This document shows positions 931-13,713 of a DNA stretch of 14,455 bases, piece after piece; position 1 is the stretch's first letter, and every line of letters begins with the position of its first letter. The position numbers and the translations under genes were made by a program. The DNA comes from a virus: UHGV virus genome UHGV-0102464. One strand, written 5' to 3'. The notes beneath the pieces are model-generated. The model was not told the DNA's origin, ran no database searches, and worked only from the letters and a program-made list of their open reading frames with translations.

Positions 931-1827
931 CTATGACTTGCTGTTTTCAGTAAGAGTCTTATCATCCAAAGAATTTATTCTAGAAATTCTTTTTAACTCA
1001 TTAAGATAATCAACCTCGTTTTCTAAGAACCAATGAAGAACTTTAGAATTGCCAAGTAATTTATTAATATATGACTGGATTATAACGAATTTCAACATAT
1101 CTGAACCATACTCGGTTTGAAGCTTTTTCGTTTCTTCCGAAGTTGTTGCCATTTCTTGTTCCAGACGAAGTATGGTTTTTTTTATATCCTTTTTATAGGG
1201 AGTGTTTTTCCCTTTATTTACTATCATCGATGCCGGTGTTGCATCCAAGATGCTCATTGCAAATTTTTTACTATAATTATCAAAATTAATCATTGTACCG
1301 ACTGCTTCAATTTGGCGAATTGGCTTCATTTTCCTCAAAACGTCAAATGTAGCCTTAGGTATAGGTTTATCAGAAAGTTTCGCAATTACACTTGGATCTA
1401 TGCCGTTCATCACATTCGCTTTATCTTTTATGGCATCAACAGATATGCCCAAAGCAGCACTAAGTTTTTCAATTGATACTTTTGCCAGAGACTTAATTAT
1501 CATTCTATGTTCTTCAACTACATTTATATGATTCACTTGTTTGTTAGGAGTGAAAGCATCATCTATGCTCGAAAGTATACATGGGGCTTTTTCTATACCT
1601 AAGTCTTTTAAAGCCTCAACCCTTAAATGGCCATCAAGTATCTTAGTGACATCTTTATCTTTGTCATAGAATACTATTATTGGTTCAATAATACCTAAGC
1701 TTTCGATAGAGGTAACTATTTGATGATATTTATGGCTTCGCTTTACGTTTTCTAATAATTCCTTAGATGGAATTAACTTATTAGTTTCCAGGTAAATAAA
1801 ATTATCGCCAAAACGTATCTGAATCAT
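931..1827 (-). CDS. ParB/Srx-fold (ParBc-like) domain protein, 298 aa, paralog of the upstream gene
   Basis: ORF track 931..1827. The ATG at 1827-1825 overlaps the stop of the upstream gene (ATGA), indicating translational coupling. The N-terminal ~100 aa fit the ParB N-terminal pattern (..SIESLGIIEPIIVF..ILDGHLRVEALKDLGIEKAPCIL..), followed by an HTH-like stretch (KLSAALGISVDAIKDK). The C-terminal ~150 aa are unassigned. Very AT-rich. Confidence 0.7.
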   Translation of the reverse strand: MIQIRFGDNFIYLETNKLIPSKELLENVKRSHKYHQIVTSIESLGIIEPIIVFYDKDKDVTKILDGHLRVEALKDLGIEKAPCILSSIDDAFTPNKQVNHINVVEEHRMIIKSLAKVSIEKLSAALGISVDAIKDKANVMNGIDPSVIAKLSDKPIPKATFDVLRKMKPIRQIEAVGTMINFDNYSKKFAMSILDATPASMIVNKGKNTPYKKDIKKTILRLEQEMATTSEETKKLQTEYGSDMLKFVIIQSYINKLLGNSKVLHWFLENEVDYLNELKRISRINSLDDKTLTENSKS

Positions 1828-2719
1828 TTTAATACCTCTTTGTTTACTGGGGTTAATATCTGAGATGGTAGTTCTGAAAGATTCTCTTGTTCAAGTATAT
1901 GTTGAAAGCTTTTATTCATCATTATGATGTTAAAAATCTCATTTACTATTAGTAGGTTGGTTTTTATGAATTTTGAGTTGTTATAAACAGATTTATGTTC
2001 AGCGATACTATTTTCATAAAGCTCAATCAACTCCTCTGCAGTCATCCTTTTTGATGGTTTGTGATAATAAAATCCGGCTGCTTTTGCACCTTTATTCCCA
2101 ACTGTTCTTTGATTTAGAATGTGTTTTATCTTTATAATGTCCCGACTTTTTATTAATTTTTTATCATATGCTTCGGTAAGAATATCTTGTGCTTCCTCAG
2201 TTTCACATCTTGCAAATTGCACTGCGAGATACAGAGGCAAATTACCCCGTTCGACTGCTGAGAGAAGTTTATGCTCTCCCTTATCAAGTAGCATATTAAT
2301 ACTGCTCACCCAGTTCGATGAATATCCAGTAATCTCACTTATTTCGGAGTCTGAAAGTCCTCTGATTTTCATGTCTTTAATCACCTGTAATAACTCATTA
2401 GAACGTGGTCTTCTCCTTGCAATGTTTTCAACTAAACTCATAACGTAAGCATCTTCTTCTGATACATCTCTTATAATTGCTGGAATAATAGTTTCACCTA
2501 ATGCAACGAGAGCCTCTATTCTCCCTTGACCACAAATTAAAGCATATTTGAAATCGCCTTCATCAATAGCTCTTACGCTTATAGGCTTGCTTAATCCTCT
2601 TTTTTTATGCTTTCCTTTATTTCTTCATGCACTAACTTATTTCTTGTTCGTGGGTTAAGAAATTTTATTTTTGCAATCTCAATTTGAATTATTGGGAATT
2701 CATTTTTTTCAGGCAGCAT
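1824..2719 (-). CDS. ParB/Srx-fold (ParBc-like) domain protein interrupted by a frame change at an A7 homopolymer; full length (~298 aa) only with a -1 frameshift or a 1-nt tract length change
   Basis: The track ORF 1824..2441 (205 aa) begins MSLVENIARRRP.., which is the middle of a ParB domain. ParB homology continues upstream of that ATG in the same frame (RGLSKPISVRAIDEGDFKYALICGQGRIEALVALGETIIPAIIRDVSEEDAYV) up to a stop at 2627-2625, with no in-frame start. A second register begins at ATG 2719-2717, with a GAGGG Shine-Dalgarno about 6 nt upstream and overlapping the last codons of the recombinase gene. It reads MLPEKNEFPIIQIEIAKIKFLNPRTRNKLVHEEIKESIKK and then stops at 2593-2591. The two registers meet in the A7 run (T7 at 2600-2606 on the + strand). 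The joined protein aligns colinearly with the downstream paralog. Confidence 0.6.
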
Positions 2720-4265
2720 ATAGTTCCCTCACTTTCATGCGAGTAATAATTTGTAGAAGTTTATCAAGATTATCAAATCTATAGAGATCTAATCGAATGT
2801 TGTTTGTTTCCGTCATGCACATTTTATTATATTCGTTTTCAATCTTTGGTATGATATAAAAATCAAGAGGTGAAATATTTTGTGAATTCATTCGTATAAC
2901 AATTGTTATGTCTGCTTTCTGTGAGTTATCAAACCGGACTTTCCATCTAAGTTTACCTGATTTCATATGTATGCATTTAGTAACAAGGACGGAAATTAAA
3001 AACTCATCATTGATGTAAAGCATTGGGGCATATTTATACTCGTCTATATGACAGTTACTTTTTAAAATTTCACCCTTAAAATCCTCAATTATCTCTGAGT
3101 GAAATGATCTTAGTGCTTCATTTATTTTGAGATAGCTGTAATCATGTTCTGGCTTATAACCAATCAAAGTATATGCTCTTAAAAGACCACCAAATCGGGT
3201 TCTATAAACAGAAGATGAAGGGCCTGTATCATCTTCATCAATGATAAAGCCTGATAGTTTTCCATTAGATTCTAATTTTTGTTTTAGTTTTTCTAATAGA
3301 TCTTCATTAGTCAAATGAATGGATCGGAGCTGAATTATTTCTTGAGCTTTATTGTGTTTTTTCTTTGAAATAATAGGTTTATATGCCTTGTCACATCTAA
3401 CCCATTCATGTTTGGGGTTTTTTACAAGCCTACTTTTTAATTTAGATGAGGTTTTGTTATATATGTTGTTTCCAATATATTTTTCATTTGTCAAAATTTG
3501 ATGTATTTTTGCACGAGTCCATAATGTTCCATTTTCTGCAGGTATGTTCTGTTCATTTAATCTCTCAGCAATAATGAATTCTGGGACGTTATTATCTATA
3601 AAGAGATCATATATTCTATTTACAATTTTTATTTCATTTTTTGGTCCCGGAATTAATATTACCCTATCTGTTTGAATACTCTTTCTTTTGCGGAAACTCA
3701 ATATTTCTTTAGCTATGCCATTTTCGTCTACTAAAAGACGTCTCAGCCCATAACCAGCCATACCGCCTTGATGATAACCAAGCTTTATTAAATTTACTTG
3801 CCCTATAAATACCTTTTCAGATAAATTCCTGCTGTGATATGCAGCACTAGATCTTTTTATATTCAGTATAACAGAGGACTCTAAAGGGAAATCTTTAGTG
3901 GGTATAGGTTCGGAACAATATATAAGATCTACACCATTTCTCTCAAATAGAAAGGAATAATATGCCGCTTCATCACTATTTTGAAAACGACCAAAACGGC
4001 TCACATCATAAAATAATACAGCCTGTATATCTATTTTCTTTTGTTCTACATCGCTAAGTAACTGCTGCAAAGAATGCCTGCCTACGATACTGACTCCGCT
4101 CTTACCTGCATCATCGTAGGTATAAGCGATTTCCATATTGTTCTTTTCAGCATAATCTTTGATATATTCGGACTGATTATGTAAAGAATATTGCTGATGG
4201 TCGGTAGACATCCTCAAGTACTGCGCGACCCTAACTCTATGATTTTTGTCATTTTCGCTAGCCAT
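2709..4265 (-). CDS. Large serine recombinase (resolvase/invertase catalytic domain + recombinase domain; C-terminal half divergent)
   Basis: 518-aa ORF with an AGGT Shine-Dalgarno about 7 nt upstream of ATG 4265-4263. N-terminus carries the serine-recombinase catalytic motifs: VAQYLRMSTDHQ (Y-x-R-x-S-T-x-x-Q with nucleophile Ser), DDAGKSG, and VLFYDVSRFGR. A recombinase-domain pattern follows (..LIPGPKNEIKIVNRIYDLF..IAERLNEQNIPAENGTLWTRAKIHQILTNEKYIGNNIY..HEWVRCDKAYKPIISKKKHNKAQEI). I saw no CxxC zinc-ribbon pairs in the C-terminal ~220 aa. Confidence 0.85.
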   Translation of the reverse strand: MASENDKNHRVRVAQYLRMSTDHQQYSLHNQSEYIKDYAEKNNMEIAYTYDDAGKSGVSIVGRHSLQQLLSDVEQKKIDIQAVLFYDVSRFGRFQNSDEAAYYSFLFERNGVDLIYCSEPIPTKDFPLESSVILNIKRSSAAYHSRNLSEKVFIGQVNLIKLGYHQGGMAGYGLRRLLVDENGIAKEILSFRKRKSIQTDRVILIPGPKNEIKIVNRIYDLFIDNNVPEFIIAERLNEQNIPAENGTLWTRAKIHQILTNEKYIGNNIYNKTSSKLKSRLVKNPKHEWVRCDKAYKPIISKKKHNKAQEIIQLRSIHLTNEDLLEKLKQKLESNGKLSGFIIDEDDTGPSSSVYRTRFGGLLRAYTLIGYKPEHDYSYLKINEALRSFHSEIIEDFKGEILKSNCHIDEYKYAPMLYINDEFLISVLVTKCIHMKSGKLRWKVRFDNSQKADITIVIRMNSQNISPLDFYIIPKIENEYNKMCMTETNNIRLDLYRFDNLDKLLQIITRMKVRELYAA

Positions 4266-4435
4266 GCACGAAACCTCATGGGTGATTCAATACAATGTAG
4301 AGGATAAAATTGATCAAATTTTAACCGAATTCAACTGTTTTATCATTGATTAGAGCGAATTTGGTAGATCTTCGAGGTGTATGATAATCGAGAAGAGATG
4401 TGAATTATTTAGCTGATATGACCGACAGCTTTCGT

Positions 4436-4485
4436 TATGTGGACTCAATGTCCCCATTTGTAAATGGCTATGCTTAGTCCACATA
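4436..4485. repeat. Nested palindrome: 10-bp inverted repeat TATGTGGACT / AGTCCACATA enclosing inner palindrome CCATTT-GT-AAATGG
   Basis: Read directly: outer arms at 4436-4445 and 4476-4485, inner palindrome at 4454-4467. It lies in the intergenic region between the integrase stop (4548) and the recombinase start (4265). No flanking T-run, so a protein-binding or recombination site is more likely than a terminator. Confidence 0.5.
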
Positions 4486-4547
4486 GGTTAATGGTGTGAT
4501 TATTAATTCTTTAACTAAATCAAGATAGTTAATCCATCATGGGAGAG

Positions 4548-5777
4548 TTATGCGGCAATAACTTTGCATTTTTGAGACGAAACATAGTCACTCCACCATT
4601 GCATGAGAACCACCCGTTCAGTGAGATACTCTGCACGATTGTAGGCTGCAATTATTTCATCTTTCTTCGAGTGGGCAAGGGCGGCTTCTAAGACATCAGT
4701 CCTAAACTTGCCAGACTCCTCAGCAGCCGTTCTAGCAATGGATCGCATACCGTGAGCTACAAGCTCACCTCCGAAGCCCATACGGATTATGGCCGCATTA
4801 GCTGTTTGTTCATGCATGTGATTGAGTGGAGCTTTGATACTGGGGAACACCCACTCTCTATGCCCGCTGATGACTTTCATTAAATCCAAAACTCGCAAAG
4901 CTTCTTTGCTCAGTGGAACTTTGTGAGGCTTCTTCATTTTCATAAACTCCGCCGGGATGTTCCACATGCCAGTTTCAATATCAATATCTGACCATCTTGT
5001 GCGAACAGCTTCACCTGGGCGAACCCATGTGAGAAGTTGCCACTCAATCAGTAGCCTTGTTTCCAAACGGATAGAAGCATTGTTTAGAGCAACCAAGAAG
5101 CGAGGGAGTTCGGAAGGGGGTAATGCTGGCATATTCTGTTTTTTTGGCTTGCTGAACCGTTGCCCCAGGTTGTCTGCCGGGTTGAATTCTATGAGTTCTT
5201 CTGTTGCTGCATAGCGGAAAATTTCATTCAGGCGGGATATGATGCGGCGAAGTGTTTCAAGGACACCTCGTTTTTCTATGGGTTCTAAATGCTGTTTAAG
5301 CATTTTAGGGCGAATCTCCTTAATTGGGGTATCACCCAATGTGGAAAAGATATTTCTCTCTAGGCTTCGCCAGATGTCGTTAGCATGATCTTGGGAGATG
5401 CCTGACGTTTTGACTTTCTCATCAAGCCACTTCTTGGCTACTGCTTGAAATGTATGTTCCGTGGCATCTTTCAGTGCATTGGCTTTTTGGTTGTTATGAA
5501 CTTGGGGGTCTATACCATTTGTAAGCAACGACAAGTATTCATCACGTAAAGCTCGTGCCTTCGCAAGTGTAAGGTGAGGATAGGTTCCTAAGCTCACCTT
5601 AGTTCGCTTTTTGGTCACAGGCACTGCATATCTGAAATACCAATTTTTCTTCCCTCCCTTCGCCAGGGGAGCGATTCGCAACAGCAAACCATCGCCGTCA
5701 AAAAGGTTAACCTCTTTTTCGGCAGGTTTGGTGCTTTTGATTTCAGTGTCAGTGAGCTTCTTAGCGATTTTGGCCAT
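4548..5777 (-). CDS. int: Tyrosine site-specific integrase, P4/IntA (CP4-57-like) family
   Basis: The track ORF runs to 5858, but the conserved N-terminus MAKIAKKLTDTEIKSTKPAEKEVNLFDGDGLLLRIAPLAKGGKKNWYFRY (arm-type DNA-binding domain typical of P4-like integrases) starts at ATG 5777-5775, so I call that start. The C-terminal catalytic region carries the HxxR box (LVAHGMRSIARTAAEE) and the catalytic tyrosine context (IIAAYNRAEYLTERV). Confidence 0.9.
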   Translation of the reverse strand: MAKIAKKLTDTEIKSTKPAEKEVNLFDGDGLLLRIAPLAKGGKKNWYFRYAVPVTKKRTKVSLGTYPHLTLAKARALRDEYLSLLTNGIDPQVHNNQKANALKDATEHTFQAVAKKWLDEKVKTSGISQDHANDIWRSLERNIFSTLGDTPIKEIRPKMLKQHLEPIEKRGVLETLRRIISRLNEIFRYAATEELIEFNPADNLGQRFSKPKKQNMPALPPSELPRFLVALNNASIRLETRLLIEWQLLTWVRPGEAVRTRWSDIDIETGMWNIPAEFMKMKKPHKVPLSKEALRVLDLMKVISGHREWVFPSIKAPLNHMHEQTANAAIIRMGFGGELVAHGMRSIARTAAEESGKFRTDVLEAALAHSKKDEIIAAYNRAEYLTERVVLMQWWSDYVSSQKCKVIAA

Positions 5778-5875
5778 GTTTGGGACCCTCGATTTTAGGA
5801 CCCATCTTCGTGGGTCCCATTCAGGGTGCCATAACTCGTAGTTCTCAGCAATTCTCACTAGACTACAATAGACGT

Positions 5876-6456: not shown

Positions 6457-6651
6457 ATGAGCGCAGATGAAAACTTGTTGAGTAAAATTCAGGAAGTACG
6501 GACGGTAGAGGATGTGGAGCAAGTCAATTTGGGCCTTTCTAAAGGCTGGGTGATTTTGAAGATCACCGAGAGCTCTACAGTCTGGGAAGATGGCAGCAAA
6601 AGCAGCCTTGTTACATATCACATGGGCAAGCCGAAGGCATTGCCGGTCTGA
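6457..6651 (+). CDS. Hypothetical small protein (64 aa)
   Basis: ATG 6457 with a GAGGG Shine-Dalgarno 7 nt upstream. The track ORF 6187..6651 extends upstream across the promoter and terminator, so the upstream part is rejected. No recognisable motif. Confidence 0.45.
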   Translation: MSADENLLSKIQEVRTVEDVEQVNLGLSKGWVILKITESSTVWEDGSKSSLVTYHMGKPKALPV

Positions 6652-6687
6652 TCAAGCCTTACCAAATCAAAAATTTCAATCATATAT

Positions 6688-6713
6688 AGGCCACCTCACG
6701 GTGGCCTTTTTTG
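6688..6713 (+). terminator. Rho-independent terminator upstream of lysis cassette 1
   Basis: AGGCCACC (6688-6695), loop TCAC, GGTGGCCT (6700-6707), then a T-run to 6712. Confidence 0.75.
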
Positions 6714-6761
6714 TTTCCCCTCAACCTTCTGAGAGGGTCAACAGCAATAAGAGGGGGCAAA

Positions 6762-7166
6762 ATGTCCGCAGAACCGATATCTGCAACGGTAACGGCAGGC
6801 GTGGCCGCCGGCACTACCGGAATCACCTTCGCGACGATGTTTCCAGAAGCGACACCCGCTGTAATGCTTTGCTCACTTGCCGGGGCTGCTCTTTATGTCC
6901 TGAGCAGTGAAGACCACAAAATCTGGAAGCAGATACTGTTCGCGCTCATCTCATTCATTGGTGGAGTCTACTGCGCCGGAACAGCATCTGAAATCATCGC
7001 TGCGCTAATCAATGCGGCATTAAGTCACCTTTCTCCTCCAGTTTCCGTGAAGGTATCTCCAGCTATGGGTGCCCTGCTGGCTTCATCGGTTTCTGTCACC
7101 ATCCTGGCTCGCATCCTCAAACGGTCGAAGACAGGAGACTTACCCGGATTGAAGGGGGAAGAATGA
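6762..7166 (+). CDS. Putative holin / lysis-associated membrane protein (134 aa)
   Basis: ATG 6762 with a GAGGGGG Shine-Dalgarno. Hydrophobic segments (..AGVAAGTTGITFATMF.., ..ILFALISFIGGVYCAGTA.., ..MGALLASSVSVTILARIL..). First gene of a lysis cassette; stop overlaps the next start (ATGA). Confidence 0.5.
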   Translation: MSAEPISATVTAGVAAGTTGITFATMFPEATPAVMLCSLAGAALYVLSSEDHKIWKQILFALISFIGGVYCAGTASEIIAALINAALSHLSPPVSVKVSPAMGALLASSVSVTILARILKRSKTGDLPGLKGEE

Positions 7167-7444
7167 CGTGGCAAACACTGATCCTGAACATTAACGCTGT
7201 TGCATGCATCCTCATCACCATACGCCTGATGTTCTTCAGGAAGCGGAGCTTACGGCGCCGCCGTCTGATGGAGTTTCTGGCCTATGGGCTGATCCTCGCT
7301 CCAGCGTTTACCGCTTTCCGCATCTGGCATGGTGATTACGTGCAGGTCGACTACGGAGAGTTGGTCGTCAACCTTGTTGTCTGCATAGCTGTATGGCGAG
7401 CACGTGGCAACATCGCAAGAATAGCAGGGGAAAGCACAACGTGA
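7163..7444 (+). CDS. Small membrane protein (93 aa), holin/antiholin-like
   Basis: ATG 7163 overlaps the upstream stop, with a GAAGGGGG Shine-Dalgarno. Two hydrophobic helices separated by a basic stretch (RKRSLRRRRL). Lies between the putative holin and the endolysin. Confidence 0.4.
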   Translation: MTWQTLILNINAVACILITIRLMFFRKRSLRRRRLMEFLAYGLILAPAFTAFRIWHGDYVQVDYGELVVNLVVCIAVWRARGNIARIAGESTT

Positions 7445-8070
7445 ACCAATCACAATTTCAAAAGGCGGCTGGCATTAGCGCCGGGCTCGCTTCGCGCTGG
7501 TTTTCGCATATCGATGCTGCAGTGAAGGAATTCGGCATAACCGCGCCGCTCGATCAGGCCATGTTTATCGCGCAGATGGGCCATGAGTCCGGCGGTTTCA
7601 CCCGGCTGGTGGAAAACCTGAACTATGCGGCAGAAAACCTGGTACCTACGTTCGGCAAGCATCGCATTACTGCGCAGCAGGCCGCCGCACTCGGCAGAAC
7701 GGCAACGCAACCGGCAAATCAGAAAGCGATAGCCAATCTGGTTTACGGCGGTGAGTGGGGCAAAAAGAACCTGGGCAACCAGGTTGCTGGTGATGGCTGG
7801 AAATATCGCGGCCGAGGCCTTAAGCAAATCACCGGGCTTAGCAACTATCGCAGTTGCGGCCAGGCTCTCAAACTGGATCTGGTTTCGTATCCAGAACTAC
7901 TGGAACGAGATGAATACGCTGCGCGCTCCGCCGCATGGTTCTACGTCTCGCACGGATGCCTGCTCCATTCAGGCGATGTGGAGCGCGTCACGCTGCTTAT
8001 CAATGGCGGACGTAACGGGCTGGATAAACGCCGCGCGCTGTTTAACCTGGCGAAGTCTGTGCTGGTGTGA
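7441..8070 (+). CDS. Endolysin, glycoside hydrolase family 19 (chitinase-like lysozyme)
   Basis: GH19 hallmark motifs: FIAQMGHESGGF and YRGRGLKQITGLSNYR (compare the GRGPxQ(L/I)(S/T)xNY motif of GH19 chitinases). Start placed at GTG 7441, which overlaps the upstream stop (GTGA); the alternative ATG 7393 lacks a Shine-Dalgarno. Confidence 0.8.
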   Translation: MNQSQFQKAAGISAGLASRWFSHIDAAVKEFGITAPLDQAMFIAQMGHESGGFTRLVENLNYAAENLVPTFGKHRITAQQAAALGRTATQPANQKAIANLVYGGEWGKKNLGNQVAGDGWKYRGRGLKQITGLSNYRSCGQALKLDLVSYPELLERDEYAARSAAWFYVSHGCLLHSGDVERVTLLINGGRNGLDKRRALFNLAKSVLV

Positions 8071-8077
8071 GGTCACT

Positions 8078-8347
8078 ATGGGATTAGAAACAATCGTCGG
8101 TATTGCTGCCCTGATAATGGCAGCTATCGCTGGTGCTTTTGGCATTGGTCATTCACGCGGCACCAGCAAAGCGGAAGCCAAAGCCGATCAGCAGCGCACT
8201 GAAGAACGTGCAACAGCTACTGAAGCTGTTGCTGAACGCCGGGTAGAGACAACAAAAGGAGCCAGGGATGTACAGCAAACTGTTAATCATCTTCCTGATG
8301 ACGATGTTGACCGTGAGTTGCGCGAAAACTTTACCCGCAAAACCTGA
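8078..8347 (+). CDS. Rz-like inner-membrane spanin (i-spanin) component, copy 1
   Basis: ATG 8078, 8 nt after the endolysin stop. N-terminal transmembrane helix (IVGIAALIMAAIAGAFGIG) then a charged helical region. The track ORF 7751..8347 is the same frame extended upstream into the endolysin and is rejected. Assignment is by position and architecture. Confidence 0.6.
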   Translation: MGLETIVGIAALIMAAIAGAFGIGHSRGTSKAEAKADQQRTEERATATEAVAERRVETTKGARDVQQTVNHLPDDDVDRELRENFTRKT

Positions 8348-8489
8348 ATTAACGGACACAGCCTGTGACTGGGTGGACATTATCTACCTCACTGAACACG
8401 ATATTGCCGTGCTGGATAAGCAGACGAAGCGGGACATATTGGTGCACAATAAATCAGTGCAGGCTAACTGTGCAAAAAAAATAAATTGA
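8268..8489 (+). CDS. Rz1-like outer-membrane lipoprotein spanin (o-spanin), overlapping the 3' end of the Rz-like gene in another frame, copy 1
   Basis: ATG 8268 with an AAAAGGAG Shine-Dalgarno. Signal peptide plus lipobox-like ..MTMLTVSCAK; several Cys. The ORF begins inside the Rz-like gene and extends past it (P2 lysB/lysC-like overlap). Its sequence is conserved in copy 2. Confidence 0.6.
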   Translation: MYSKLLIIFLMTMLTVSCAKTLPAKPELTDTACDWVDIIYLTEHDIAVLDKQTKRDILVHNKSVQANCAKKIN

Positions 8490-8618: not shown

Positions 8619-8768
8619 GTATCTGCATTTCACCGCGCACCGCAGCGCATTCAATCACGTCGAACCCAACCTTTTGGAATGAGCCGTTGAGGAGTCAGTT
8701 AGTGCTGGCGAGCCTCGACGGGCTGATTTCCTATGCGACAAAGGTTCATTTCAAAGAAGGTAAACGCA

Positions 8769-9356
8769 ATGCACGACTCAACAAGCGGGTTGGTCTTTGG
8801 AGTTGGCAAACTCGATGTACACCCCGTTATCAATAAAGGGGTAAAACTCAGGTCATACAGAGTATGGTTTGGGATGCTGAAAAGATGCTACGGAAAGGGA
8901 ACGGCATTTAAAAGTGAATACCAAGGATGCTCAGTCGATGAGCAATGGCACAAGTTCAGTAATTTTCAGCAATTTTACGACAAGAATTACTTCGAAGGCG
9001 CCGAGTTAGACAAGGATTTGCTTTATCTGGGTAATAAAGTTTACTCAAAAGATAGGTGCGTGTTCATCCCGTCATTCCTCAACGCCTTTATCACTGTTAG
9101 GCCGCCAAGAAACAACAACCTTCCGATTGGCGTATACCAAGTTAGCAACAGCCGGAAGTATCAATCAGAAATACAAGTTAATGGTGAAAGAAAATATCTA
9201 GGACTCTTTGAAGATCCGCATGAAGCTCACTCCGCTTGGTTTAATGAAAAGCTGAATATGGCAATTTCCTACAAAGAGTTGTGCGATTCTCTGCACCCTG
9301 ATTTGTATGGCGGACTCATAACAAAAATAGAAAGCATGCGAGTCTATCCGGATTAA
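8769..9356 (+). CDS. Hypothetical protein with AP2-like DNA-binding domain in C-terminal half
   Basis: ATG 8769 with a GAAGG Shine-Dalgarno 8 nt upstream (the track start 8733 has none). The C-terminal stretch IGVYQVSNSRKYQSEIQVNGERKYLGLFEDPHEAHSAWFNEK resembles the AP2 domain found in phage HNH/AP2 proteins. The N-terminal half (..SYRVWFGMLKRCYGK..) is unassigned. Confidence 0.5.
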   Translation: MHDSTSGLVFGVGKLDVHPVINKGVKLRSYRVWFGMLKRCYGKGTAFKSEYQGCSVDEQWHKFSNFQQFYDKNYFEGAELDKDLLYLGNKVYSKDRCVFIPSFLNAFITVRPPRNNNLPIGVYQVSNSRKYQSEIQVNGERKYLGLFEDPHEAHSAWFNEKLNMAISYKELCDSLHPDLYGGLITKIESMRVYPD

Positions 9357-9481: not shown

Positions 9482-9793
9482 ATGGCTAAGCGTATGCAAG
9501 ACAAAGAGAGCATTGCCGGGATGTCCTGGCTGGTTCTGCTGATCATTGCTTGCTGGGGTGGACTTGTCCGCTACCTGATAGATGTGAAGCAGAGCAAGGC
9601 AACATGGAGCTTGATCAATGCTCTTGCCCAAATGGTGGTTTCAGGGTTTACCGGCGTTATTGCTGGCCTGGTGAGCATTGAAAGCGGACTGAGCATTTAC
9701 ATGATTCTGGCAACCGCGGGGATAAGCGGCGCGATGGGCTCCGTAGCGCTCACGTATTTCTGGGAACGAATCACCGGAGTGAAAGCACAATGA
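9482..9793 (+). CDS. Holin (103 aa), lysis cassette 2
   Basis: ATG 9482 with a GGAGG Shine-Dalgarno 8 nt upstream. Hydrophobic helices; stop overlaps the endolysin start (ATGA). Confidence 0.6.
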   Translation: MAKRMQDKESIAGMSWLVLLIIACWGGLVRYLIDVKQSKATWSLINALAQMVVSGFTGVIAGLVSIESGLSIYMILATAGISGAMGSVALTYFWERITGVKAQ

Positions 9794-10329
9794 CAGCAGA
9801 CCAGATTATCGAGGGGATCCTCGGCAAGGAGGATGGTTATGTCGATCATCCGTCGGATAAAGGCGGGCCGACCCGCTGGGGCATCACGCAGACCACCGCC
9901 CGTGCACATGGCTACACCGGTGATATGCGGAACCTGCCCAGGGAAACAGCAAAGCAAATCCTGCTGAGCGATTACTGGACCGGCCCCCGGTTTGACCAGG
10001 TGGCAGCTCTATCTACGTTACTGGCAGATGAGCTTTGCGACACTGGCGTGAACATGGGGCCATCTGTAGCCAGTAAGTTTTTCCAGCGCTGGCTGACCGC
10101 AATGAATATGCGCGGAAAGCTGTATCCCGATCTGATTCCGGATGGCGCCATTGGTCCCCGAACCATCACCGCGCTTAAGGGATACCTTTCCGCCCGCGGG
10201 AAAGAGGGTGAACAGGTTCTGTTGCGTGCGCTGAACTGCAGCCAGGGTGCCAGATACCTCGAACTGGCGGAGGGCCGCGAAGCCAACGAGGATTTTCTCT
10301 ACGGCTGGGTTAAGGAGCGTGTCCTGTGA
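9790..10329 (+). CDS. Endolysin, glycoside hydrolase family 108 N-terminal domain + peptidoglycan-binding C-terminal domain
   Basis: N-terminal EDGYVDHPSDKGGPTRWGIT matches the GH108 signature (EGGYVDDPxDxGGxTxxGIT). C-terminal ..IPDGAIGPRTITALKGYL.. resembles the PG-binding-3 type domain. Confidence 0.8.
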   Translation: MTADQIIEGILGKEDGYVDHPSDKGGPTRWGITQTTARAHGYTGDMRNLPRETAKQILLSDYWTGPRFDQVAALSTLLADELCDTGVNMGPSVASKFFQRWLTAMNMRGKLYPDLIPDGAIGPRTITALKGYLSARGKEGEQVLLRALNCSQGARYLELAEGREANEDFLYGWVKERVL

Positions 10330-10670
10330 AGATGATCATTTTCGCTTTGCTTGTGCTGGTGGCTGTGCTCGTTCTGTTACTTCTGCGCAAATATACCCGG
10401 CTGGAGTTCGTAGGGCATGCCAGCTTGCTGCTGAAAACGTGGTCTGTAAAGCTGGGAGCTATCGGCGCGCTGGTTGGTGTATGGGCGCAGTCGTTCCCGG
10501 ATGCTGCGCTGCACGCCTGGGCGGTGCTGCCGCCGGATATCAAAAACATCCTGCCGCCAAACATCGTTGCGTTGATTAGCCCTGCGCTGGTGGTGCTGGC
10601 CGTACTATCGCAATACGTACGCCAGCCAGCATTGAAAGAAAAGGCCGACGAACTGAAGGAGCAGCAATGA
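10326..10670 (+). CDS. Membrane protein between endolysin and spanins (LysA/antiholin-like position)
   Basis: Start GTG 10326 (overlaps the endolysin stop) or ATG 10332, with an AAGGAG Shine-Dalgarno at 10310-10315. Strongly hydrophobic (IIFALLVLVAVLVLLLL.., ..LVALISPALVVLAVL..). Stop overlaps the Rz-like start (ATGA). Confidence 0.5.
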   Translation: MKMIIFALLVLVAVLVLLLLRKYTRLEFVGHASLLLKTWSVKLGAIGALVGVWAQSFPDAALHAWAVLPPDIKNILPPNIVALISPALVVLAVLSQYVRQPALKEKADELKEQQ

Positions 10671-10942
10671 GCTTTGAAATTATCGCGGGACTGGTGGTCG
10701 TCATCCTGGGTGCTATTGCTGGCGCGTTCGGCATTGGTCATGCTCGCGGGGCCAGTAAGGCGAAAGCCAAAGCTGATCAGCAACGTACCGAAGAGAACGC
10801 CGCTGCTACTGTCGCCGCGGCAGAACGCCGTGCTGAAGTCACGAAAGGGGCCAGCGATGTACAGGAAGACGTTAAGCGTATGGGCGATGACGATGTTGAT
10901 CGGGAGTTGCGCGAAAAGTTTACCCGCCCCGGTAGTCGTTGA
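10667..10942 (+). CDS. Rz-like i-spanin component, copy 2
   Basis: ATG 10667 with a GAAGGA Shine-Dalgarno. Roughly two-thirds to three-quarters identical to copy 1 by eye (AIAGAFGIGH..KADQQRTEE..DDDVDRELRE.FTR conserved). Confidence 0.6.
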   Translation: MSFEIIAGLVVVILGAIAGAFGIGHARGASKAKAKADQQRTEENAAATVAAAERRAEVTKGASDVQEDVKRMGDDDVDRELREKFTRPGSR

Positions 10943-11081
10943 CACGGCCTGCAGCTGGGTGCGGATCATCTACCTGACTGACCACGATATCGATGTGTTG
11001 GATAAGCAGACCAAGCGCGACATTCTGGCGCACAACAAAGCAGTGCAGGCCAACTGCCAGAGCATTACCCCTACTCATTGA
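10857..11081 (+). CDS. Rz1-like o-spanin lipoprotein, copy 2 (overlapping and extending past the Rz-like gene)
   Basis: ATG 10857 with an AAAGGGG Shine-Dalgarno. MYRKTLSVWAMTMLIGSCAK.. then DTACSWVRIIYLTDHDIDVLDKQTKRDILAHNKAVQANC, closely matching copy 1. The track ORF 10674..11081 is the same frame with a spurious upstream extension. Confidence 0.6.
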   Translation: MYRKTLSVWAMTMLIGSCAKSLPAPVVVDTACSWVRIIYLTDHDIDVLDKQTKRDILAHNKAVQANCQSITPTH

Positions 11082-11249
11082 GTTAAATAAATGGCCTCAT
11101 CCTTGAGGTCCACGAGTAAGTAAACGCAAGGTCTTTTATGTAATGGCTCTTTTAGCCTAGGAGCCAACTCAGAAACAACAAGCGTAAGCGGTAGATATTT
11201 ATGATTTTTTTTCTGCTGCTTATCCACAACCTACCGAAGAGGCTAAGAA

Positions 11250-11366
11250 ATGATTGCAACCATAGGAACCATTATCGTTTGGACGCTCATTGTTGTGGAT
11301 GGAGTTATTGGGATTCTGTGCGCGTTTATCGGTCTTATGTTCCTCATTAACTTTCCCATTCGCTAA
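11250..11366 (+). CDS. Possible small hydrophobic peptide (38 aa), not in ORF track
   Basis: ATG 11250 preceded by GAAGAGG. Translation MIATIGTIIVWTLIVVDGVIGILCAFIGLMFLINFPIR is a single predicted transmembrane helix. Too short for the track; existence uncertain. Confidence 0.3.
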   Translation: MIATIGTIIVWTLIVVDGVIGILCAFIGLMFLINFPIR

Positions 11367-11470
11367 CCCCACCAAGGGATAAACCAGCCTTCATCCCCAC
11401 GTGAGGATATTACAGAAGCCACTGACTGAGTGGCTTAGATAATGTTCCCGACATCGCACAGAGGTAAAAC

Positions 11471-11716
11471 ATGGCAGAGATCACACCGGCAGAACAGATT
11501 CGACTGAATCTGCTTTCCACCCTGAACTACGACACCGCGGCCGCTGCTAAGGCGATTGAGTTCGTCCAGGATAGCCAGCTCAAATATCAGCTGTTCATCC
11601 AGCAGTACAACCGCGTGACAACTGAATCAGAAGTTGTGGCGCGGACCATCAAAGCGGTTCAGGAGTCGGCGGAAGCGTTAGCGCTGTTTGATACCGCGGC
11701 TGAGCAGGCCAGTTAA
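11471..11716 (+). CDS. Hypothetical protein (81 aa)
   Basis: ATG 11471 with a GAGGT Shine-Dalgarno at 11461-11465. No recognisable motif. Confidence 0.5.
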   Translation: MAEITPAEQIRLNLLSTLNYDTAAAAKAIEFVQDSQLKYQLFIQQYNRVTTESEVVARTIKAVQESAEALALFDTAAEQAS

Positions 11717-11719
11717 GGC

Positions 11720-11755
11720 ATTACAGCAGGCATTCACGTAGTGCCTGTGATAATG
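11720..11755 (+). repeat. 36-bp repeated element, copy 1 (ATTACAGCAGGCATTCAC-GT-AGTGCCTGTGATAATG) with internal inverted repeat and extended -10-like TGTGATAAT
   Basis: Read directly; 34/36 identical to the copy at 12061-12096. Contains CAGGCA..TGCCTG inverted arms and TG-n-GATAAT. Confidence 0.6.
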
Positions 11756-12025
11756 TTAAAGCTCCTGTATAAGGGGCAGTTGTATGATGTCATGCAACGA
11801 AGCAACCAAACTATGGAAAGTCCGGGTAATGGTTTTGGAGTGAATGTGACGTTTCGCAACGATATAGATGGCTACTTTTTCCTGTTGCTTAGTATGTGGC
11901 CAGTGCTAATGGTTTTATTCCTGGGATTGTCCTCTGCATTTTACGGTGTGTTAATGCCTAAAACGGCAATTGCTTGTCTGGTGATCGCTGCCGCTGTGGG
12001 TACCGTTGGGTGGTTCTATGGATAG
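11741..12025 (+). CDS. Hypothetical small membrane protein (start uncertain)
   Basis: The track ORF begins at GTG 11741 inside the repeat; the true start may be an internal ATG. C-terminal part is hydrophobic (FFLLLSMWPVLMVLFLGL.., ..IACLVIAAAVGTVGW..). Confidence 0.4.
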   Translation: MPVIMLKLLYKGQLYDVMQRSNQTMESPGNGFGVNVTFRNDIDGYFFLLLSMWPVLMVLFLGLSSAFYGVLMPKTAIACLVIAAAVGTVGWFYG

Positions 12026-12060
12026 GCATCCTGGAAACATTTGGTCAGGTTATAGACTGT

Positions 12061-12096
12061 ATTACAGCAGGCATTCACTGAGTGCCTGTGATAATG
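12061..12096 (+). repeat. 36-bp repeated element, copy 2 (ATTACAGCAGGCATTCAC-TG-AGTGCCTGTGATAATG)
   Basis: Differs from copy 1 only at the 2 central bases; lies about 40 nt upstream of the AT-rich moron start. Confidence 0.6.
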
Positions 12097-12134
12097 ATAA
12101 ATTACTTACTCACACCTTTTGTGAGGTAAGAGAA

Positions 12135-12431
12135 ATGAAGCATCTTGTACATTCTTTTTTATCTGTATCATCTGACGGTGCAACTATTAAGTACGAAATA
12201 TATTCTCAAGATCAGGAATTAGGACATTTAAAGAAGATCCCGGAGGGTAGTTGTCAGATCATTAAGTCGATATATCAAAAGGATAGCAATAGTTTTAAGT
12301 TAATAGACTTAAACGTAAATGTTGAGGATTTATTTAAGGCAAATCAACCCAAGCCAAATACTTGGTACTCGGATGGGCAAGACCGTGTAAATCTCGACAT
12401 GCTTATCAATTATCTTGATAACTTAAAATAA
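12135..12431 (+). CDS. AT-rich moron-like gene, hypothetical protein (98 aa)
   Basis: ATG 12135 with a GAGGT Shine-Dalgarno about 7 nt upstream. Composition is markedly more AT-rich than flanking phage genes. Preceded by the repeat/promoter-like element and followed by a strong intrinsic terminator. No recognisable motif. Confidence 0.6.
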   Translation: MKHLVHSFLSVSSDGATIKYEIYSQDQELGHLKKIPEGSCQIIKSIYQKDSNSFKLIDLNVNVEDLFKANQPKPNTWYSDGQDRVNLDMLINYLDNLK

Positions 12432-12450
12432 TTGTAAGTTGAAATCATTT

Positions 12451-12478
12451 AGACCTCGAATCCCGAGGTCTTTTTTTT
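12451..12478 (+). terminator. Rho-independent terminator after the moron
   Basis: AGACCTCG (12451-12458), loop AATCC, CGAGGTCT (12464-12471), then T8 to 12478. Confidence 0.8.
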
Positions 12479-12487
12479 GGAGGTTTT

Positions 12488-12721
12488 ATGCGCCTGACTG
12501 TTCTCAGTAACGACCCTGGTGAACGTATATGGCCTAGCCGTGAACGCATAACGGTGTACCTCAACGGTGTCGAGGTCAAGTACGTTTTTACCGCCGATGA
12601 TCAGAAGGGCGAAGTTATCGCTGCTACGCTCGACTGTCTTGGCAACCTCATAGCCGAGAATGGCGAGATTAAGCGCCAGAAGCTGTTAGGTCAGGTGAGG
12701 ATAGAGCGATGCCCGCGCTAA
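12488..12721 (+). CDS. Hypothetical protein (77 aa) immediately upstream of and overlapping the HNH endonuclease gene
   Basis: ATG 12488 with a GGAGG Shine-Dalgarno just upstream; overlaps the HNH start by 13 nt. Confidence 0.5.
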   Translation: MRLTVLSNDPGERIWPSRERITVYLNGVEVKYVFTADDQKGEVIAATLDCLGNLIAENGEIKRQKLLGQVRIERCPR

Positions 12722-13059
12722 TACCCCGCGCCTGCCGTAAGCGTGGATGTCCTGGAACTACCACAGACCGCTTAGGCTACTGCGAGAAGCACCGCAACGA
12801 AGGCTGGCAACAGCATCAACAGGGAAAGAGTCGCCACGAGCGTGGCTACGGTAGCCAGTGGGATATCAGGCGTGCGCGCATCCTGAAACGCGACAACCAT
12901 TTATGCCAGAACTGCCTTCGCAGCGGGCGAGCTGTCGCAGCAAAGACGGTTGACCACATCAAGGCCAAGGCTCATGGGGGTACCGATGACGATTCGAACC
13001 TCGAAAGCCTGTGCTGGCCTTGCCATCGAACGAAAACCGGGCGCGAACGCATAAAGTGA
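12709..13059 (+). CDS. HNH endonuclease (phage packaging-associated type)
   Basis: Cys/His-rich: ..CRKRGCPGTT..GYCEKH.. and the HNH core ..VDHIKAKAHGGTDDDSNLESLCWPCH... AGGTGAGGA Shine-Dalgarno before ATG 12709. Position directly upstream of the terminase small subunit is typical. Confidence 0.85.
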   Translation: MPALIPRACRKRGCPGTTTDRLGYCEKHRNEGWQQHQQGKSRHERGYGSQWDIRRARILKRDNHLCQNCLRSGRAVAAKTVDHIKAKAHGGTDDDSNLESLCWPCHRTKTGRERIK

Positions 13060-13215: not shown

Positions 13216-13713
13216 ATGCCAGGACCACCGAAAACCCCGACACATCTGGCTTTAGTGAAGGGGAACCCATCCAAGCGCCCGATCAATAAGAACGAGCCAA
13301 AACCCCCGTCAGGGGTCCCCCCAATACCGAAACATTTCGATAAACAGGGTAAGTACTGGTTCAAACGGATTGGTGAGGAACTTGATGCCGTCGGCGTGTT
13401 GACCACGCTGGATGCTAAAGCGCTGGAGTTGTTGATAGAAGCCTATGTTGAATACCGGCATCACTGCGACACGCTTGATCGTGAAGGTTACACCTATGCC
13501 GTCTACAGCGAAGATGATTCAGATGAAGGAGGGGAGCGGGAAATCAGAATGATCAAACCGCACCCTGCAGCAGTCATGAAGGCTGACGCGTGGAAACGGA
13601 TCAGAGCGATGCTGAGCGAATTCGGCATGACACCTGCCAGCCGATCAAAGGTTGGTGCAAAAGACCCGGCAGAAGCCGACCCACTGGAAGAATTTCTTAA
13701 AAAGCGCAAATGA
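13216..13713 (+). CDS. Terminase small subunit (P27-family-like)
   Basis: ATG 13216 with a TAGGAG Shine-Dalgarno. ..LDAKALELLIEAYVEY.. pattern and placement between the HNH gene and the large terminase gene. Confidence 0.75.
   Translation: MPGPPKTPTHLALVKGNPSKRPINKNEPKPPSGVPPIPKHFDKQGKYWFKRIGEELDAVGVLTTLDAKALELLIEAYVEYRHHCDTLDREGYTYAVYSEDDSDEGGEREIRMIKPHPAAVMKADAWKRIRAMLSEFGMTPASRSKVGAKDPAEADPLEEFLKKRK

Follow-up and report, generated by a model that had tools for sequence, protein, structure and literature searches.

A 36-nt element with internal dyad symmetry occurs twice between small genes in the late region of a temperate phage, raising the question of whether it works in DNA, as a promoter or operator shared by the genes that follow, or in the transcript, as a structured RNA. 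Both possibilities had been put forward in the initial annotation of this locus. The window, by which we mean the whole 14,455-nt stretch of viral DNA that was analyzed, contains the two copies as annotated (copies 1 and 2, Table 1): they are identical at 34 of 36 positions, carry the inverted arms CAGGCA and TGCCTG, both end in GATAATG, and differ only at element positions 19 and 20 (GT versus TG). With up to three mismatches allowed, the number of chance matches expected for the 36-mer is 0.00. The annotated arms do exist, but the dyad extends well beyond them, with an upper stem of 8 to 10 bp that includes a U·G wobble and a lower stem formed by ATTA/TAAT and its flanks.

A search for further copies, which the initial annotation had recommended, revealed a third in the window and a wide family in other phages and prophages. 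Copy 3 has the length and flanks of copies 1 and 2 and a stem altered on both sides (C-G to A-U, G-C to C-G, and U·G to C-G); its flanks also match those of copies in four other loci (L095, L042, L108, and L120). The pattern TTACAG-N15-30-GATAAT matched the window three times, compared to an expectation of 0.04, and a covariance model of the family scored copies 1, 2, and 3 at 62.2, 61.7, and 51.3 bits, all on the plus strand (10-14 bits in antisense), and found no copy in the window beyond these three. The predicted folding energies were –19.5 kcal/mol for copy 1 (z –5.3), in which loss of the C16-G20 pair has enlarged the loop to 5 nt, –17.9 kcal/mol for copy 2, and –18.8 kcal/mol for copy 3 (z –5.2).

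The three copies fill the intergenic gaps of a run of small accessory ORFs that follows the lysis cassettes. Copy 1 begins 3 nt past the stop codon of the DUF2560 gene (11714-11716), and copy 2 lies between two ORFs, 35 nt from the stop of the first and 38 nt from the ATG (12135) of the second; an 11-codon frame that starts at the ATG of copy 2 ends 5 nt short of that downstream ATG. The arrangement of copy, DUF2560 gene, and copy, with a spacing of 311 nt, was present in at least seven other loci. PADLOC and Pfam searches of the cargo genes returned nothing besides DUF2560. Cargo gene 3, which had no family match in Pfam, PHROG, or PADLOC and has a strong intrinsic terminator behind it, looks like a foreign, moron-type gene. 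A weak Rfam match resembling Phe_leader proved to be merely the terminator-like hairpin behind this gene.

Several features lie outside the run of accessory genes. A free-standing HNH endonuclease gene (8733-9356) parts the two lysis cassettes, whose spanin regions are paralogous (73% identity between 8078-8338 and 10667-10927, and 81% between 8355-8470 and 10941-11056) and whose endolysins come from different families. A strongly hydrophobic 38-aa ORF (11250-11366), situated after the spanins and before copy 3, has no family match and may encode a small membrane protein. The minus strand directly before the first lysis cassette (931-5858) carries genes for a tyrosine integrase (4548-5858), a serine recombinase (2709-4265), and two ParB-like/methyltransferase-like proteins (931-2441), a gene order that is unusual for a lambdoid prophage and may reflect a second element or an inserted island.

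Table 1. Copies of the element and neighboring features, in coordinates of the window.
Feature	Position	Strand	Description
Lysis cassettes, two in tandem	6711-8489, 9482-11081	+	Holin(s), endolysin, spanins; both complete
Copy 3	11409-11444	+	ATTACAG-AAGCCACTGACTGAGTGGCTT-AGATAATG; overlooked in the initial annotation
Copy 3, extended hairpin	~11405-11447	+	8-bp lower stem, 3x3 internal loop, 8-bp upper stem AAGCCACU/AGUGGCUU, 5-nt loop
Cargo gene 1	11471-11716	+	DUF2560 family protein, 81 aa; PHROG 571; Pfam DUF2560, 3.3e-20; between copy 3 and copy 1
Copy 1	11720-11755; extended hairpin ~11717-11757	+	Upper stem CAGGCAUU/AGUGCCUG
Cargo gene 2	11792-12025	+	Small hydrophobic protein; phrog_36556; start uncertain, in-frame ATGs at 11753, 11792, and 11813
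Copy 2	12061-12096	+	Full 10-bp upper stem, ACU triloop, 5-bp lower stem
Cargo gene 3	12135-12431	+	98-aa ORF; GC trough of 0.35 versus 0.56-0.59 in the flanks
Intrinsic-terminator-like hairpin with T-run	12451-12478	+	Ends the third cassette
HNH endonuclease	12709-13059		After the accessory run
Small terminase subunit	13216-13713		After the HNH endonuclease

A sense-strand hairpin shared by Enterobacterales phages

Matches to ATTACAG-N22-GATAATG in viral contigs were hairpins in 108 of the 135 cases among the matches listed, with many different stems. In an alignment of 100 distinct copies (A1), the fold consists of a lower stem (G-C-A-U-U-A paired with U-A-A-U-G-C), a 2x2 internal loop (5′-CA/GA-3′), a 10-bp upper stem, and a loop usually of 3 nt; this two-stem structure was the minimum free energy (MFE) fold in 99 of the 100 copies. 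Pairing was present in 96.6% of alignment cells, compared to 36-47% when the 3′ partners were slid out of register. Double changes occurred at nine pairs (157 cells), and none of 500 shuffles reached the observed values. Variation is concentrated in the middle of the upper stem, which is free to change (CAGGCA, AAGCUC, CAGCCC, GUGGCA, AUGGCU, and others), while in the lower stem and internal loop the sequence itself is conserved and no covariation is seen. The core CAUUA/UAAUG is invariant and places four A-U pairs beside the internal loop, and the outermost G-C pair of the lower stem is optional. When one flank was left free in the search, GATAATG was kept in ~83% of copies and CATTACAG in ~85%. 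The top of the helix is also conserved, in columns that the search pattern does not constrain at its U-A and U·G pairs: the loop is closed by C-G (88%), followed by U-A (98%) and then U·G (84%, with C-G in 11%). Diverged copies found with the covariance model had loops of 4-8 nt, giving an overall range of 3-8 nt, on a stem of constant length, and the diverged copy in ST64B keeps every pair through G·U.

These data also assign the structure to one strand. In A1, G·U cells outnumbered A·C cells 194 to 15; therefore, the structure acts in the sense strand. Consistent with this, the mean MFE was –22.4 kcal/mol in sense and –16.7 kcal/mol in antisense, with the sense strand more stable in 94 of 100 copies, and covariance-model scores across the family were 46-71 bits in sense and 21-29 bits in antisense. 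Copies in multi-copy loci never lay on opposite strands. We conclude that the structure almost certainly acts as RNA in the sense strand, and of the alternatives raised at the outset it is the RNA structural element that the covariation and the strand asymmetry bear out.

The family is widespread among temperate phages of one bacterial order. Both phi80 and mEp390 carry the exact 36-mer of copy 2, from which that of the Pectobacterium phage ZF40 differs by one base; the Salmonella phage ST64B has a more diverged copy, and further copies are found in the cdtI phage, phiP27, and many Klebsiella prophages. Detailed inspection of four phages (phi80, mEp390, ZF40, and ST64B) placed the element between the lysis genes and terminase, on the strand of the late genes. 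Each of three scans of viral contigs gave at least 120 matches. In a scan of one genome per species, 79 of 80 matches were in Enterobacterales (Enterobacteriaceae, Yersiniaceae, Pectobacteriaceae, and Erwiniaceae); the sole match elsewhere, in Sphingomonas sp. NPDC019816 (L301), could be contamination or transfer. The element was found in 230 of 5426 complete E. coli genomes, among them DH10B, Nissle 1917, and O104:H4, at a median of one place each, only in prophages, and was never annotated. Copy number was 1-3 per genome. Two matches were on plasmids, a 276-kb plasmid of Klebsiella sp. WOUb02 (L260) and a 48-kb E. coli plasmid-type record (TUM22769). In one locus (L021), two copies (885-936 and 972-1023) are separated by 87 nt from start to start, leaving no space for a gene between them.

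We found no relevant match to the region 10900-12800 in Rfam 15 (E ≤ 5), no paper in a full-text literature search for the element sequence, nothing pertinent in a keyword search on lambdoid late-operon stem-loops, and nothing specific in a search on RNase III sites in temperate phages. The element is apparently an uncatalogued, widespread RNA hairpin.

Placement after stop codons and exchange of flanking genes

The initial annotation placed the element upstream of consecutive small genes, which is half true: across the family its position is set by where the upstream gene stops, not by where the downstream gene starts. An ORF of at least 40 codons ended no more than 5 nt upstream in 61% of 244 distinct instances, compared to 3.6% at random positions in the same loci, and no more than 14 nt upstream in 78%, compared to 8.6%. 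All three stop codons occur before the element, TAG in excess owing to its overlap with the conserved rGC at the helix base. The next gene starts 10-230 nt after the element (median 62), and a few copies come after a terminator T-run. In phi80 (L001, 2540-2570), the element follows directly on the rha stop, a second hairpin (AGCCCGU ACAAA ACGGGCU) comes within 6 nt, and a convergent gene lies beyond; the phi80 element is thus at the 3′ end of a rightward transcription unit. We rejected the terminal ATG as a general start codon, as the ORFs that it opens had a median of 11 codons and reached 40 codons in 19 of 106 cases, against a rough random estimate of ~15; leaderless mRNA or uORF coupling after cleavage likewise found no support across the family.

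The genes on either side of the element are diverse. We identified 36 unrelated upstream families, including spanins, Rha, DUF2560, Acb2/Tad1, GnsAB, DUF826, and DUF551, and 55 unrelated downstream families, including small terminase subunits, HNH endonucleases, Pol III theta, a metallopeptidase, and a BamE-like protein, and 28,977 of 30,135 instance pairs had the element alone in common. For this reason, the description of the two original copies as a precise duplication is misleading; they are members of a large family common to unrelated loci and did not arise by local duplication. Where pairs shared one flank, homology ended at the edge of the element (413 pairs at positions 31-38, and 228 at –5 to +4). 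A cassette gain or loss bounded by two copies was seen in one comparison: locus L095 has the order upstream gene, element, 332 bp, element, DUF2560, and the window and loci L120 and L164 have upstream gene, element, DUF2560, with the breakpoints at the element. The extra 332-bp segment (L095, 6677-6972) has no sense ORF of at least 30 aa, its only ORF being antisense (84 aa, 6642-6896), and its cargo may be non-coding or antisense. The element is thus also a seam at which gene cassettes are swapped by recombination.

Possible readers of the hairpin

What, then, would read a hairpin at this position? We propose, with a probability of about one half, that the element is a T7-like signal for RNase III processing or binding that insulates and stabilizes the accessory cistrons of the late transcript. 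It would be a cis-acting intercistronic RNA hairpin of ~40-46 nt in the late-operon transcript, directly after the stop codon of an accessory gene. Host RNase III would dock on the 10-bp upper stem through a U-A/U·G distal box, and the small internal loop would limit cleavage to the 3′ strand, predicted to fall between element positions ~29 and 33 (within Y-G-A-U-A). The upstream cistron would keep a protective 3′ hairpin starting at its stop codon, the downstream cistron would be released with a standard 5′ end, and each accessory gene would be insulated from the RNA context of its neighbors; in a variant of this mechanism, RNase III would bind without cutting. As an evolutionary by-product, the near-identical island of 36-40 bp serves as a site of cassette swap, insertion, and deletion between unrelated phages. 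We infer RNase III as the reader, and cleavage with its consequences, by analogy with characterized substrates.

The sequence preferences of RNase III have been defined in detail (Pertzev and Nicholson, PMC1540722). In the distal box, U-A followed by U·G is optimal, and the requirement for U·G is stringent, its change to A-U lowering reactivity more than 30-fold. The proximal box consists of G-C at pb1, A-U or U-A at pb2, A-U at pb3, and A-U or U-A at pb4, where G-C is a catalytic antideterminant. A helix of at least 11 bp is needed, the sequence and position of the loop are irrelevant, and internal loops lead to cleavage of a single strand, the remaining 3′ hairpin guarding against 3′-5′ exonucleases (all PMC1540722). 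The element shows U-A and U·G as the second and third pairs below its loop at the frequencies given above, and because this succession is the optimal one, we take these conserved pairs to be a canonical distal box. Its overall plan is that of a T7-type substrate, a hairpin of roughly two helical turns with a 10-bp upper stem, a 2x2 loop, and a lower stem of 5-8 bp. The proximal-box consensus is a poor fit at the spacing of R1.1: a proximal-box-like G-C (97%) and A-U (93%) are present at a distance from the distal box that is 1 bp less than in R1.1, as they are in T7 R1; the pairs that follow are C-G or A-U and then, adjoining the internal loop, G-C or G·U. If the G-C beside the internal loop were a catalytic antideterminant, RNase III would bind the element without cleaving it. 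Counting against RNase III is the restriction to Enterobacterales of an element whose putative reader is universal. The invariance of the lower stem and internal loop is also compatible with recognition by a sequence-specific RNA-binding protein, or with a signal in DNA like the GATAAT hexamer.

A factor other than RNase III might instead read the RNA hairpin, an alternative that we consider rather doubtful though serious. The hairpin would then work like REP sequences, passively blocking 3′-5′ exonucleases or modulating translation and termination close to the stop codon, or else serve as an operator for a sequence-specific RNA-binding protein of phage or host. REP hairpins near stop codons reportedly stabilize the upstream mRNA and can lower translation. 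The same evidence of structure, strand, and position fits such a reader, to which the restriction to Enterobacterales would also be congenial if the factor were lineage specific, and the invariant lower stem, the CA/GA loop, and the conserved U·G suggest sequence-specific recognition. However, the loci have no candidate protein in common, given 36 and 55 unrelated flanking families and host phages of different types, and a passive barrier leaves the conserved U-A/U·G pairs, the fixed stem length, and the conserved internal loop unexplained.

It is unlikely that the element is a DNA promoter and operator, in which the dyad would bind a regulator and GATAAT would act as the –10 box of every downstream moron (in extended form, TGTGATAAT, in copies 1 and 2). 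GATAAT(G) is indeed kept in ~83% of copies with that flank free, copies of the CAGGCA type have TG in front of it, a promoter would be in keeping with the varying distance to the next gene start, and copy 2 with its AT-rich ORF and terminator resembles a classic moron. Yet TTACAG and GATAAT are 22-23 bp apart, no σ70 promoter with a 16-18 bp spacer was called at any copy, and the position 17 bp upstream of GATAAT falls in the variable stem. The TG is missing in copies of the AAGCUC and AAGCCA types, about half of the family, and G30 is retained where a T would improve the –10 box. The phi80 element faces a hairpin and a convergent gene, leaving it no gene to drive, and the text of an ST64B transcriptome paper gives no transcription start or processing information at the element. 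As for the operator, a dimeric DNA-binding protein would conserve the sequence of the arms, which here covary freely, and neither this covariation nor the asymmetry of G·U over A·C is expected for recognition of duplex DNA. The shared operator or promoter-like element of the initial annotation is thus not supported, given covarying arms, strand-asymmetric conservation, and the lack of a promoter call at any copy; a weak extended –10 activity of TGTGATAAT may exist in copies 1 and 2.

We consider it very unlikely that the element functions as DNA in recombination or mobility, either as a hairpin in single-stranded DNA recognized by a site-specific recombinase or HUH enzyme (as with attC or REP/RAYT) or as a functionless homology linker. 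Mosaic breakpoints exactly at the element edges, a cassette indel bounded by two copies, and arrays of unrelated small ORFs each with a trailing hairpin, which recall integron cassettes, are what such an element would produce, and single-stranded DNA hairpins also tolerate G·T pairs. However, we found no recombinase near the element in phi80, mEp390, ZF40, or ST64B, no GTTRRRY/RYYYAAC core, and no target duplications, and the element occurs at 1-3 copies per genome in prophages only. A pure homology linker would lack the compensatory changes and the conserved wobble. We found no evidence of site-specific excision for the element.

The remaining candidates were rejected: an intrinsic terminator (our scan found one only behind cargo gene 3 and none at the copies, whose stems are followed by no U-tract), a bacterial SECIS (all three stop codons precede the element), a σ28 promoter (CGATAA is present, with no TAAA at the right spacing), a self-cleaving ribozyme (too simple, with no Rfam match), and, by inspection and general knowledge, CRISPR-repeat mimicry, boxA/boxB nut sites, N4-type or Frpo-type single-stranded DNA promoters, and a MazF ACA site.

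Beyond the RNase III reading itself, we tentatively suggest that the element could be a portable cassette boundary of Enterobacterales temperate phages, a single module of 36-46 nt that would be cut or bound by host RNase III, giving standard 3′ and 5′ ends, and would also supply homology for phage recombinases. If so, these phages would run an integron-like cassette economy without a dedicated integrase, with a cargo that includes counter-defense genes such as Acb2/Tad1. Confirmation would establish a new, abundant, and easily recognized RNA motif in hundreds of prophages and at least 79 Enterobacterales species, with carriers that include phi80, E. coli Nissle 1917, O104:H4, and clinical Klebsiella. 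The element would mark the hypervariable slot between lysis and packaging genes where phages keep morons and counter-defense genes, and so offer an annotation landmark for accessory and anti-defense cargo. The sharp mosaic joints of the lysis-terminase region would be explained, operon punctuation by RNase III, textbook knowledge for lytic T7, would extend to temperate phages, and operon engineering would gain a compact natural insulator part.

Comparison with known systems

Among recombination-associated systems, integron attC cassettes resemble the element in that each of a series of small unrelated ORFs has behind it a hairpin that is strand specific, conserved at its base, interrupted by an unpaired spacer, and variable in its upper part. 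However, attC sites span 57-141 nt and have IntI and R/L boxes, whereas the element spans 36-46 nt, has neither, and lies inside a transcribed phage late operon; we found no integron integrase beside the phi80, mEp390, ZF40, or ST64B copies, and neither R′′/L′′-L′/R′ boxes nor a GTTRRRY core in the consensus. REP/BIME sequences are imperfect palindromes of ~35-40 nt, intercistronic or 3′ and often near stop codons, that act as stabilizers at the RNA level. The element shares with them the palindrome of ~35-40 nt close to stop codons. REPs, in contrast, have hundreds of chromosomal copies, a GTAG motif at the 5′ end, and RAYT transposases, while the element occupies a median of one place per carrier genome, lacks GTAG, and is unrelated in sequence. 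The PeSLs of T4-type phages are intergenic motifs that start at the upstream stop and lie beside ORFans in hyperplastic regions, where recombination at the motifs shuffles cassettes (PMC2839356). A short conserved motif after a stop codon, ORFan flanks in variable regions, and modular exchange are common to both. PeSLs contain consensus σ70 promoters and terminator-type stem-loops, whereas the element has no properly spaced promoter and no U-tract and is a hairpin of fixed geometry with RNA-type covariation.

For the intercistronic RNase III sites of T7, we used cleavage coordinates that we take to be those of Dunn and Studier 1983. The sites so placed are corroborated only by gene names, the GCAA tetraloop, and the UA/UG box described in PMC1540722. 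In each, an internal loop separates a lower stem from an upper stem of 9-10 bp with the pattern AAGGUCxxxC-loop-GxGUGGCCUU, after which comes UAU-GAU; the hairpins abut stop codons (gene 4.5, stop 13853 and hairpin 13854; gene 0.7, stop 3100 and hairpin 3102; gene 18, stop 36822 and hairpin 36816).

The element differs from these sites in several respects. Its internal loop is symmetric (2x2, CA/GA) and that of T7 asymmetric, its stem is 1 bp shorter than that of R1.1 between the distal and proximal boxes, its lower stem (CAUUA/UAAUG) is invariant, and its loop is of three bases. The T7 sites belong to the early region of a lytic phage, while the element belongs to late-operon accessory regions of temperate phages. 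Covariance models linked the two in neither direction: on T7, model R1 gave a best match of E = 0.06 at the R18.5 hairpin and recovered no T7 site, and model R2 (upper stem and loop), which was dominated by the invariant flanks and uninformative on T7, recovered none.

When an element-arm matrix was run over the whole T7 genome, R1.1 ranked first and R1.3, R0.5, and R1 were in the top 15; in reverse, a matrix from seven T7 stems, which are paralogues of one another, ranked the three copies 2nd, 4th, and 10th in the window. The scores from these matrices (16.0 and 13.7 bits) fall in the range of maxima obtained with shuffled sequence, and only the coincidence of rank with known sites is informative. 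The top score of the T7 matrix in the window (13.9 bits) was a minus-strand hairpin at 6688-6708 (AAGGCCACC-GTG-AGGTGGCCT), which is opposite in strand to the lysis genes and may be a chance match.

The likenesses to the T7 sites (R0.3, R0.5, R1, R1.1, R1.3, R4.7, and R18.5) extend from position to individual base pairs. Both groups are sense-strand intercistronic hairpins at or beside the upstream stop, built from a lower stem, a small internal loop, and an upper stem of 9-10 bp, with arms of the form (A/C)AGxxxUUC...GAGUGxCU(U/G) and GAU on the 3′ side. T7 R1 (CAGGUCAUC UGCG GGUGGCCUG) has in common with the element the CAGG...CCUG frame and the G-C/A-U/C-G base. R1.1 (AAGGUCAUUC GCAA GAGUGGCCUU) has the same top five pairs, including an identical U-A/U·G distal box beneath the C-G closing pair.
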